Source of the DNA: Rickettsia endosymbiont of Bradysia coprophila
GTDB taxonomy: Bacteria > Pseudomonadota > Alphaproteobacteria > Rickettsiales > Rickettsiaceae
DNA length: 32,000 nucleotides
Direction of reading: 5' to 3'
Assembly: GCA_019468145.1 (NCBI GenBank)
Contig: JAHXDM010000002.1
Span: forward strand, 262,757 to 294,756
The notes under the pieces were generated by a model that was given only the letters and a program-made list of their open reading frames with translations, had not been told where the DNA came from and made no database searches. Positions 9,224 through 20,067 of the stretch are shown in pieces (position 1 is the first letter of the stretch; every line of letters starts with the position of its first letter). Made by a program: the position numbers and the translations under genes.

Positions 9224-9634
9224 ATGTTAGCTCCAAAAAAACAAAAATTTAGAAAAGCTCATAAAGGAAGAGTTCCTTCAAAAGCTAAAGCGGGCACTAT
9301 GTTAGCGTTTGGTTCTTTTGGTTTAAAGTCTTTAGATGGCTTAAGGGTTACTGCAAGACAAATAGAAGCCGCAAGAAAAGCAGCTATTCGTTGTATGAAA
9401 AGGCAAGGAAGATTATGGATTAAGATTTTCCCTGATTTGCCTGTCTCTAAAAAGCCAGCAGAAGTTCGAATGGGGAAAGGGAAGGGTTCACCTGAGTTTT
9501 TTGCTGTAAGAGTAGCTCCTGGCAGAATAATGTTTGAAATTGAAGGTGTAACAGAAGATATCGCAAATAGAGCATTGGAACTGGCTAGTGCGAAATTGCC
9601 CGTTAGGACAAAGATAGTGAGGCGTTATGAATAA
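9224..9634 (+). CDS. rplP: 50S ribosomal protein L16
   Basis: [16 protein letters not shown]..., [19 protein letters not shown]. Confidence 0.96.
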
Positions 9635-9839
9635 TCCTAGAATATCTACTAAAGAATTGGTAGGACAAACAACAGAAGAACTTAATAAAAAACTATTTTT
9701 GTTTAAAAAAGAGCTATTGAATCTTAGATTTCAGAGAAAATTAGGAGAATTAAAAAATATTAGCAGATTTTCTGTTGTAAAAAAAAATATAGCTCGTATT
9801 AATACAGAATTAACAGTAAGATTAAAAACTGGAGAATAG
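9627..9839 (+). CDS. rpmC: 50S ribosomal protein L29
   Basis: 70 aa. [15 protein letters not shown] pattern. Overlaps the rplP end by 8 nt. Confidence 0.88.
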
Positions 9840-9844
9840 AGAAA

Positions 9845-10078
9845 ATGCCAAAAAGAGTATTGCAGGGTGTAGTAGTTAGTGCTAAAACTGATAAAACAAT
9901 TAAAGTTAAAGTTGAACGGAGATTTAAACACCCTATATACAAGAAAATTGTAAGAGTCTCTAAAAAATATACTGCTCATGATCCAGAAAATACCTATAAA
10001 GATGGGGACAAAGTTAGTATAATAGAAAATCGGCCTATTTCTAAGACGAAATCTTGGGTAGTACTAGTAGGAGAATAG
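9845..10078 (+). CDS. rpsQ: 30S ribosomal protein S17
   Basis: 77 aa. [29 protein letters not shown]...ISKTKSW. Confidence 0.93.
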
Positions 10079-10092
10079 TTTTTTCTCTGGAC

Positions 10093-10121
10093 TTGAATGG
10101 CGTATTTTATTGTGTTATTAA
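10093..10121 (+). promoter_or_regulatory. Candidate sigma70-type promoter at the S10/spc operon boundary
   Basis: TTGAAT (10093-10098), a 17-nt spacer, then TATTAA (10116-10121) preceded by TGt (extended -10). Lies in the 67-bp rpsQ-rplN gap. Confidence 0.3.
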
Positions 10122-10145
10122 ATATCTTTAGTGAGAAATTAAGTT

Positions 10146-10514
10146 ATGATTCAGATGGAGAGCACCTTAAAGGTTACAGATAATTCTGGAGCTACAATGG
10201 TGAAATGTATTAAAGTCCTTGGTGGGTCGCATCATATGATAGCAGATCTTGGGGATGTTATCGTAGTATCGATAGTAAAAGCATTACCGAGGAAAAAAGT
10301 AAAAAGCGGTGAGGTACATAAAGCATTAATTGTTAGAACAAAAAAAGGGGTTAGAAGAGCAGATGGTAGTACCATTAAGTTTGGTTCTAATGCAGTAGTG
10401 CTTTTAGATAAACAAGGGGAACCAATAGGTACAAGAGTGTTTGGTACAGTAACCCGAGAATTAAGGGCGAAGAAATTTGTTAAAATTATGTCGCTTGCAG
10501 AGGAGGTATTGTAA
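10146..10514 (+). CDS. rplN: 50S ribosomal protein L14
   Basis: 122 aa. [16 protein letters not shown]...; [24 protein letters not shown]. Confidence 0.96.
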
Positions 10515-10844
10515 ATGATAAAACTGAAAGTAAGAAAAGGTGATGAAGTTATTGTTATTACAGGAAAAAATAAAGGAAAAAAAGGGAAGATTATAAAAAT
10601 TTTTCCTGATGAAAATAAAGCTCTGGTGTCGGGCGTAAATATTGTGCGTAAGCACACTAAAGCCAGTCAAGTAAGTGATGGGGGAATTATAGCTAAGGAA
10701 TTACCTATTCATATTTCTAATATTGCTCATATAGATCCTAAGTCTGGTGCTCATACTAAAGTTGGTTTTAAAATTTTAGAAGATGGTTCTAAAGTTAGAG
10801 TGGCAAAAAAATCTGGTGAAATTATTGGTAAGGATGGTAAATAA
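10515..10844 (+). CDS. rplX: 50S ribosomal protein L24
   Basis: 109 aa. [22 protein letters not shown] (KOW motif). Confidence 0.93.
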
Positions 10845-11386
10845 TGTTGCTTAGATTTAAAGAATTATATACTAAAGAAATTATTCCAAATTTGCAAAAA
10901 AAGTTTGCCTATGCTAATAAACACCAAATACCTAAAATTATTAAGGTTGTGATTAATATGGGCGTTGGGGAAGCTGTAGCAGATTCAAAAGTAATTAATA
11001 ATGCTGTAAATAATTTAACTTTAATTTCAGGACAAAAACCTGTAGTAATTCAAGCAAAAAAATCTGTGGCTATTTGGAAATTACGGGAAGGAATGAAAAT
11101 AGGTTGTAAGGTTACGTTGCGTAAAGATAGAATGCTTGATTTTTTTGAAAGATTGCTGATGGTGGCTTTACCGAGGGATAAGGACTTTAGAGGGTTTTCT
11201 AGTAAAAGTTTTGATGGGAAAGGTAACTTTACTTTTGGTATCAAAGAACAGATAGTTTTTTCAGAAATAAAATATGATGAAATAGATCAGATTCGTGGTA
11301 TGGATATTACTATTGTTACGAGCGCCAAAACTAACGAAGAAGGAAAAGCTTTGCTTTCGGGCTTTAATTTTCCTTTTTATAATTAA
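10844..11386 (+). CDS. rplE: 50S ribosomal protein L5
   Basis: 180 aa. [16 protein letters not shown]..., [28 protein letters not shown]. Confidence 0.95.
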
Positions 11387-11403
11387 TATTTAGAAGATAA
11401 AAA

Positions 11404-11708
11404 ATGGCTAAAATAAGTTCTATTCAAAAAATAATAGAAGAAAAAAAAATGCACAGAATGCATATAATAAACGTACTAAATTAAAAGAAAAAATCTATGA
11501 TAAAACCTTATCATTAGAAGAAAGATTTTCATTAGTAATGGCCTTGGCCAAATTACCAAGAAATTCAGCTATGAATAGGGTTAGAAATAGATGTGAAATT
11601 ACTGGGCGCCCAAGAGGGGTATATAGTAAATTTGGTTTATCAAGAAATAAATTAAGAGAGATTGGTAGTAAAGGTTTAGTGCCTGGGTTAATAAAAGCAA
11701 GTTGGTAA
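11404..11708 (+). pseudogene. rpsN: 30S ribosomal protein S14, reading frame interrupted (needs a -1 shift or one extra A); possibly functional or an assembly artefact
   Basis: Absent from the ORF track. The frame starting at ATG 11404 reads [26 protein letters not shown] and stops at 11482-11484. The -1 frame reads [93 protein letters not shown], with its stop at 11706-11708. Joining the two at the A6 run (11426-11431) gives a canonical 101-aa S14. Confidence 0.85.
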
Positions 11709-11726
11709 AATAATAGGTTTATTCAT

Positions 11727-12125
11727 ATGTCAATGACAGATAATATAGCAGATATGTTAACTCGGATTAGAAATGGTCAAAAAAGTAAGTTGATTAGTAT
11801 ATCTCTGCCTGGGTCAAAAACAAAATGTGCTATTTTAAAAGTACTGCAGGAGGCAGGATATATAAAAAGTTATGAACTTTCTACTGAGCAAAATATAAGT
11901 CAAATTGAAGTATATTTGAAGTATTCTATTAAAGGAAAACCTGCTATATTTAAGATAGATAGAGTATCCAAACCTGGAAAAAGAGTTTATTCTTCCATAA
12001 GTAAATTAAGGGGATATTATAACAATATGGGAATTTATATTCTTTCTACCTCTAAAGGAGTATTATCTGATAGAGAAGCACATAACCAGAAAGTTGGTGG
12101 TGAAGTAATTTGTAAAGTGTTCTAA
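11727..12125 (+). CDS. rpsH: 30S ribosomal protein S8
   Basis: 132 aa. [13 protein letters not shown]...; [14 protein letters not shown]...[10 protein letters not shown]. Confidence 0.96.
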
Positions 12126-12134
12126 GGTATAAAA

Positions 12135-12668
12135 ATGTCACGTGTTGGAAAATCGCCAATTTTTATTCCTACAGGGGTAATAATTGAGCTGGATGGACTT
12201 AAAATAAATGTAAAAGGTCCTAAAGGAGAGTTAACAAAAGTTTTTGTAGGAAATATAGAGATTGTTTTGCAAGATAAATTTTTGGTTGTTAAACCATTAT
12301 CTAAAAGTAAAAAAGCAAGGGAAATGTGGGGTACTACAAAAAGGCTTATCGAGAATATGGTAAAAGGTGTGACAGAAGCTTTTACTACGGAACTTGAATT
12401 AAGTGGTGTAGGTCTAAAAGCGAGTGTAAGTGGTGAATATTTAAATTTAGCATTAGCTAAAAGCCATAACACTAAAATTAAAATACCGCAAAATCTTAAA
12501 ATCAATGTTCCTAAACCAAATCAAATTATATTGGAAAGTGTGAATAAAGAGCTACTAGGGGAATTTGTATCTATTACCCAAAAGCAGAGACCACCTGAAC
12601 CATATAAAGGTAAGGGGATTAAAATTAAAGGGCAGTATGTCCAAAGAAAACAAGGCAAGAAAAATTAA
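12135..12668 (+). CDS. rplF: 50S ribosomal protein L6
   Basis: 177 aa. [13 protein letters not shown]......[21 protein letters not shown]. Confidence 0.95.
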
Positions 12669-13837: not shown

Positions 13838-14182
13838 ATGAGTAATGATAAATTAGTAAATAACCAACTTTTTCCAGAAGATTCGAGCATGGAATCTGTA
13901 GAAGATACGGAACTTAAAAACCTAGCGTACGGCAGTAAAGGCGAGCTTGGTACTGGGTTTTCGCAATTACCAGCAGAACTAGATGTGCATAAGAGCTCTA
14001 TTCCAAGAATTAGAGTTACTCAAATCGGAAGTGGTATAGGACGCAAATATGATCAAGAACAAACTCTAATCGGTTTAGGTCTAAATAAAATGTATAAAAC
14101 TGTAATTTTAGAAAATACTGCTTCTATTAGAGGGATGGTAAAAAAAATACAACATTTATTAAAAGTAGAAAATTTAAATTAG
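13838..14182 (+). CDS. rpmD: 50S ribosomal protein L30 with an atypical ~50-aa acidic N-terminal extension (alternative short form from GTG 13985)
   Basis: The C-terminal 60 aa are canonical L30: [54 protein letters not shown]. The ORF stays open 49 codons upstream of the canonical start, back to ATG 13838, with AGGA 4 nt upstream. Confidence 0.8.
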
Positions 14183-19398: not shown

Positions 19399-20067
19399 GT
19401 GCTATCCTTAGAACAATTGACATTTAATATAGGAAAAAAAAAATTATTTGCTGGGATTAGCATATCTTTTTTACCATCTTCTATAATTTACTTACACGGC
19501 AGTAATGGATCGGGAAAAACTTCCTTACTGCGGATAATATCTGGCCTGCAGGTTCCAAGCAAAGGCAGAGTGCTGTATAGATCATTGGAATGTAAAGACC
19601 TTAAAAAACCATATTGCAATTATATTGGTCATAATAATGGATTAAAGTTGCAGCTCACGGTCTTAGAATATTTAAAATTCTGGAGCCAAATTTATGACTC
19701 TCTAGAAGCATTAGAGTCTGCAATATATTATTTTAAATTATCTTCTATTTTACATACCAAATGCCATATACTTTCTGCTGGTAATCAAAAAAAACTTGCC
19801 TTAGCTAAATTGATGGCTTGCCAAACTAATTTGTGGTTATTAGATGAGGTAGAAGCAAATCTTGATCAAGAAAATAAAGGATTATTATATAATTTAATTA
19901 TTTCTAAAGCAAATAATGGGGGAATTATTATACTAACTTCCCATTCAAATATAGATATTAAAACTGCTGAAATAATCAAGTTAGAGGATTATACCCCTCT
20001 GCCGATGGTTTTGCCGTCTTGTGCGATGGAGCGAAGCCTTATAGATAATAAGGCGAACGACGGGTAA
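19399..20067 (+). CDS. ccmA: Heme exporter ATP-binding protein CcmA; the 3' end (last 25 codons and stop) is supplied by an inserted palindromic element
   Basis: GTG start. Walker A GSNGSGKTSLLRII.GL, signature LSAGNQKKLALAKL, Walker B LWLLDEVEANLD, H-loop TSH. The tail YTPLPMVLPSCAMERSLIDNKANDG is encoded by the element at 19990-20103. Confidence 0.85.
   Translation: MLSLEQLTFNIGKKKLFAGISISFLPSSIIYLHGSNGSGKTSLLRIISGLQVPSKGRVLYRSLECKDLKKPYCNYIGHNNGLKLQLTVLEYLKFWSQIYDSLEALESAIYYFKLSSILHTKCHILSAGNQKKLALAKLMACQTNLWLLDEVEANLDQENKGLLYNLIISKANNGGIIILTSHSNIDIKTAEIIKLEDYTPLPMVLPSCAMERSLIDNKANDG

Follow-up and report, generated by a model that had tools for sequence, protein, structure and literature searches.

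A frameshift in rpsN of a Rickettsiaceae symbiont assembly is most probably a one-base homopolymer under-call

The gene for ribosomal protein S14 (rpsN) is divided between two reading frames in the deposited genome of a Rickettsiaceae symbiont, and we consider it very probable that this frameshift is an under-call of one base in the assembly consensus, a run of seven A (A7) having been written as six (A6), and that the gene is ordinary, intact and single-copy. The stretch of DNA that we analysed (hereafter the window) is 32,000 nucleotides long and represents positions 262757-294756 of contig C22 in a 2.27-Mb assembly (G000) of 25 contigs with a completeness score of 99.89%. Both states of the tract were observed directly, A6 in the window and A7 in three sets of contigs from independent sequencing runs.

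Within the window, the parts of rpsN lie between two intact ribosomal protein genes, with the following features.

10844-11386, plus strand: rplE (uL5), an intact 180-aa ORF and the upstream neighbour in the spc operon, in the same order as in relatives
11404-11484, plus strand: ATG frame of rpsN, which encodes S14 only in its first nine codons (MAKISSIQK) and then reads through out of frame to a TAA
11426-11431, plus strand: A6 tract, where one base is probably missing; A7 in independent contigs
11430-11708, plus strand: remaining 92 codons and stop of rpsN, in the -1 frame (NNRRKK...GLIKASW)
11441-11449, plus strand: A9 tract, not the site of the discrepancy; with the frame restored, it would encode lysine codons of the basic N-terminus (RRKKN)
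11727-12125, plus strand: rpsH (uS8), an intact 132-aa ORF and the downstream neighbour

The ATG at 11404 opens a frame of 26 codons that closes with the TAA at 11482-11484, and the nine residues at its start match the N-terminal MAK[IV]SSI[QK]K of relatives. The -1 frame has a TAA at 11409-11411 and is open from 11412, its S14 portion running from 11430 to the stop at 11706-11708. Both A-tracts fall in the overlap of the two frames, the A9 starting 10 nt downstream of the A6. When rpsN was read with an X at the break, the product was 101 aa long and matched the Pfam model Ribosomal_S14 (PF00253) with 82.3 bits over residues 48-100 (cut-off 27), and a six-frame genome search with the same model found a 98-aa open frame at this locus with 82.8 bits. 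The score above the cut-off and the position between rplE and rpsH in the spc operon both place the gene in the long form of uS14. The original prediction had described a two-frame S14 at this position, and the sequence and ORF map bear out all of its coordinates and tracts. According to the same ORF map, the remainder of the window’s long ribosomal-protein operon is unbroken. An L30 ORF in the window (13838-14182, 114 aa) carries the L30 domain in residues 58-107 only, so it would extend about 57 aa further at the N-terminus with the upstream ATG as its start. At 655/657, a suspected break was rejected, as the site corresponds to two separate genes, one BamD/YfiO-like and one RecN-like (SMC_N).

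Support for a seventh A comes from public sequencing runs. Contigs of X5 (study P2), X7 (P4) and X9 (P5), three runs from three studies under two organism labels (that of X9 differs), were aligned to positions 9500-12300 of the window. Each set has one A inserted behind 11425, with depths of 54.8/54.8 in X5, 52.9/52.9 in X7 and 6.81/6.81 in X9. The X5 and X7 contigs show no other differences over the covered parts, while those of X9 carry eight substitutions and have A7 nonetheless. In all three, the extra A turns the tract into A7 and gives an uninterrupted 101-aa S14; a continuous frame of about 101 codons is thus present in the contigs of three runs and absent from the deposited window. This insertion was the sole frame-relevant indel in the 2,801 bases aligned, the other indel being a TCA variant in the rplE-rpsN spacer of one X9 contig only. 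No indel was found in the X5, X7 or X9 contigs at the A9 of rpsN (11441-11449). As a control, we considered a second in-frame A9 (9779-9787), which lies inside an apparently intact ORF (9627-9839); it agrees with the independent contigs, where it is unchanged. An A10 (19434-19443) inside another apparently intact ORF (19399-20067) falls outside the aligned stretch.

Several properties of these data bear on how they should be read. The support for A7 consists of consensus contigs rather than raw reads, and contigs drop rare variants. The library type of the runs is unrecorded or guessed (‘?’ or ‘DNA?’), and multi-gene contigs of 5-37 kb point to DNA. It had been stated beforehand that raw reads with A7 at 11426 would make the frameshift a simple assembly error, and A7 was indeed recovered there, in contigs of three runs and not in raw reads. 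A6 as the state of the organism’s DNA, which the prediction had entertained, is contradicted by these contigs. A k-mer comparison located the DNA in public runs of several studies: runs X1-X6 contained 0.98 of the sampled 31-mers of the window, and no run reached 1.00. A value of 0.98 is expected for one difference, since up to 31 of the roughly 1,271 words (2.4%) are lost through a single indel. The A6 version seems to be absent from all indexed runs. At the level of RNA, a poly(A)-selected RNA-seq run with the same species label (X20, raw reads) had 0 reads on the 2.8-kb stretch and gives no test either way, and a further search of the runs brought up none of RNA that was shown to contain the sequence.

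The spacer upstream of rpsN showed a peculiarity of its own. A second X9 contig (1,240 nt) shares just 30 nt with the window (11363-11392), with a TCA insertion behind 11375 and unlike flanks, and the X7 contigs break at 11363-11392 too. A short dispersed repeat is probably present in the rplE-rpsN spacer.

We also compared the locus with those of 36 Rickettsiaceae relatives, fetched via the neighbouring S8 gene. All 36 loci have the same rplE-rpsN-rpsH order and an intact 101-aa S14 starting MAK[IV]SSI[QK]KNNRR[KR]K, and none of these relatives has a two-frame rpsN. One of them (L016) has the nucleotide context of the window with A7 instead of A6 (C-A7-TAATAGAAG) and reads ATT CAA AAA AAT AAT AGA AGA AAA AAA. 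With a seventh A, the window would read ATT CAA AAA AAT AAT AGA AGA AAA AAA AAT GCA in a continuous S14 frame. The expectation that one A restored in the first tract would produce IQKNNRRKK and a 101-aa uS14 therefore matches what is found in relatives. In this Tisiphia-like symbiont of the Rickettsiaceae, the true gene of the spc operon would be a long-form rpsN (uS14, 101 aa), and its expression would involve no recoding mechanism. Five loci of spotted-fever-group Rickettsia (L020, L021, L025, L026 and L029) have an in-frame A9 at the equivalent lysine codons, which indicates that the A9 run is ordinary coding sequence in an AT-rich family. An alternative history of the A9, in which an A8 became A9 together with the loss of a G from ATGGCA, was set aside as inseparable from substitutions; it is irrelevant to the verdict.

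Further copies of the locus were sought in other collections. The protein database held no identical intact S14 (best match 88%), searching public assemblies for exact copies of the S8 protein returned no record, and a pattern scan of JGI metagenome contigs permitting A6 or A7 gave no match. In three genomes of the same genus (G001, G003 and G009), the DNA match is split at position ~11709, where the rpsN-rpsH spacer is longer by about 250 bases, which suggests an inserted element in this spacer.

We next considered gene copy number. No second S14 gene was found when all six frames of the entire 2.27-Mb assembly were searched with PF00253. Only rpsN scored above the cut-off of 27 bits, the next-best match reaching 14.9 bits (E 0.05), and the same search was positive in 14/14 reference genomes used as controls. 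This answers the question of a second rpsN, which had been raised together with the frameshift, in favour of a single copy. It also bears on the idea that rpsN is a dispensable pseudogene backed up by another S14 gene elsewhere, a reading that is refuted for the assembled contigs and to which we assign next to no probability. The genome, with its completeness score of 99.89%, has no other gene for S14, and if the frameshift at codon 10 were real, it would hit an essential gene.

Such a frameshift would need a rescue, and we judge it very unlikely that A6 is real in the sole rpsN with the symbiont kept viable by slippage of the polymerase or the ribosome on the neighbouring A9. Bacterial RNA polymerase is known to slip on runs of nine A or T, with Buchnera and Blochmannia among the cases (PMC5009743). 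By analogy, S14 could be made from a genuine A6 sequence if the polymerase, slipping on the A9 (or the A6), added one A in some transcripts. The layout is suitable for this, as the A9 lies 10 nt 3' of the A6 within the interval open in both frames, a single-copy essential gene would call for such a rescue, and Buchnera and Blochmannia are endosymbiont precedents (PMC5009743). What is seen in DNA argues the other way. A7 is present in three independent runs, two of which are otherwise identical to the window, no indexed run has all words of the A6 version, and neither X9, a slightly diverged strain, nor any of the 36 relatives has the frameshift, which is therefore not conserved. Compared with slippage-type systems, the window therefore has the run of about nine or more A or T near the indel, and it has neither a frameshift upheld in genomic DNA nor its maintenance in relatives. 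We regard transcriptional slippage as having only a slim chance of being correct.

Rescue at the ribosome can be described with similar precision. The zero frame GAA GAA AAA AAA ATG holds the heptamer A_AAA_AAA (11442-11448), and ribosomes shifting -1 on it would land on AAT GCA CAG, which is the S14 frame, entering at the AAT at 11448. A slippery heptamer of the form X_XXY_YYZ in the zero frame is shared with dnaX-type systems; conservation of the two-frame arrangement is not, as relatives lack the layout. The DNA of the independent runs requires no shift, and it is implausible that an essential ribosomal protein would be made solely through low-efficiency frameshifting. The probability that this explanation holds seems to us negligible. 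The predicted product of either route, slippage on the A9 or a -1 shift, would also be 101 aa long. Three options had been listed in the original prediction, and they fared differently: a homopolymer sequencing or assembly error is supported by A7 in the contigs of three runs, while transcriptional and -1 ribosomal slippage are unneeded and without positive evidence.

A mixed symbiont population in the sequenced host would be another source of disagreement. Most genome copies might have A7 and a minority A6, the assembler having settled on the minority form or on a state that was ambiguous locally. Homopolymers are hot spots of mutation, and a minority A6 in X5, X7 or X9 could hide, since contigs drop rare variants. 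This proposal lacks positive support, however, and a copy with A6 and no functional S14 would need complementation, in a polyploid cell or a mixed population; we think it highly improbable. Even then, the deposited consensus would still misrepresent the organism. The under-call of A7 as A6 remains our preferred explanation, and we infer that it originated as a consensus or polishing error and not as a mutation in the assembled sample. As a counterpoint, the assembly is not proven to derive from any of the runs, and the assembled sample might therefore carry a mutation of its own.

To see how common such errors are, we surveyed frameshifts across the whole assembly by comparing all ORFs of the closest complete relative (G011, 1,601,456 bp) with the assembly by tblastn, and the other way round. 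Of the conserved ORFs, 1,253/1,622 were each covered to at least 90% by one alignment to the relative. We counted 56 frameshift junctions in the assembly vs 35 in the relative. Most of the 56 were in multi-copy, apparently mobile families and showed no strong excess of homopolymers, with 6/56 beside runs of at least seven bases. The idea that the assembly is riddled with homopolymer errors was accordingly rejected, as there is no systematic signature. As the assembly is not generally full of errors, the S14 error would be a rare leftover outside any obvious pattern. A first scan for N-terminal frame switches was too noisy, owing to shadow ORFs and over-long start calls; after refinement, the scan picked up S14 together with one or two further credible cases.

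Two further genes were observed in the course of this survey. The recG gene (C22 ~793,887; L135:1062-1191) is split into ORFs of 371 aa (wedge, DEAD) and 295 aa (Helicase_C, RecG_dom3_C). Its break is a net 1-nt deletion at an A8/T8 run, and the gene shares ~70% identity with its counterpart in the relative, which is intact and 693 aa long. Either a further consensus error at a homopolymer or a real pseudogene may account for this split. The other is a conserved PPDK-like gene on the minus strand (C22 ~1,042,977; L134:2648-2722), of 857 aa, which shares 78% identity with the relative and matches PPDK_N weakly, at 28.4 bits (cut-off 27 bits; E 1.3e-6). Codons 1-14 of this gene (MAKEEIVEDQASDP) are in another frame than the rest, with the switch at a C7 run, an anatomy like that of the S14 case.

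On sequence comparison, the organism is a Rickettsiaceae symbiont of the same genus as Candidatus Tisiphia records. The S8 protein is 79-80% identical to those of Candidatus Tisiphia (Torix-group Rickettsia) symbionts, and the rplE-rpsN-rpsH DNA is 79-82% identical to that of twelve genomes of the same genus. Symbiont DNA makes up six contigs at ~33% G+C, and the remaining nineteen small contigs are foreign-looking, at 60-68% G+C. The latter (C2-C5, C7-C10, C13, C14, C16-C21 and C23-C25) measure 4-59 kb each and ~283 kb together. The largest of them, C18, is densely coding and includes a phage tape-measure protein (PF20155, E 4e-55). Foreign DNA of high G+C, from bacteria or phages, thus seems to be present in the bin and to go unnoticed by marker-gene contamination scores (0.16%).

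These results are of value mainly for quality control, as a public genome used as a species representative shows an essential ribosomal protein gene as a pseudogene, very probably falsely. In automatic annotation, rpsN will be dropped or marked as disrupted. Apparent homopolymer frameshifts in this assembly, such as those of recG (A8) and the PPDK-like gene (C7), need read support before they are interpreted biologically. Were A6 real, an essential ribosomal protein gene would be kept solely by recoding in a Rickettsiaceae symbiont, and the known range of rescue by poly(A) slippage would grow by a core ribosomal gene and by the family Rickettsiaceae; this is not supported by the evidence.

Comparison with known systems places the gene among its relatives. 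The window shares with the long form of uS14 in Rickettsia and Candidatus Tisiphia the PF00253 domain, the position between rplE and rpsH, the C-terminus GLIKASW and, at A7, the length of 101 aa. The N-terminus, again at A7, is as in these relatives, and the protein is 84-88% identical to its best protein-database matches, Ca. Tisiphia records among them. After RRKK, the window has N where its closest relatives among the Tisiphia and Rickettsia records mostly have L, M, I or F, and after restoration of the frame its lysine codons form the A9 run; there is no difference of substance. The slippage cases of Buchnera aphidicola and Blochmannia (PMC5009743) resemble the window in that an AT-rich intracellular symbiont shows an apparent 1-nt frameshift in a needed gene, with an A9 in the overlap. 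They differ in that the frameshift of the window is absent from independent DNA, from the sister strain X9 and from all relatives. Errors in long-read assemblies are predominantly short homopolymer-associated indels, with deletions reflecting conservative estimates of homopolymer length (PMC12007338), and such deletions are the error that typically persists in a long-read consensus. The present assembly differs from that description in having no obvious genome-wide excess of such breaks, and resembles it in that a single-base deletion in an A-run of 6-7 breaks a conserved gene and independent assemblies disagree at the site.
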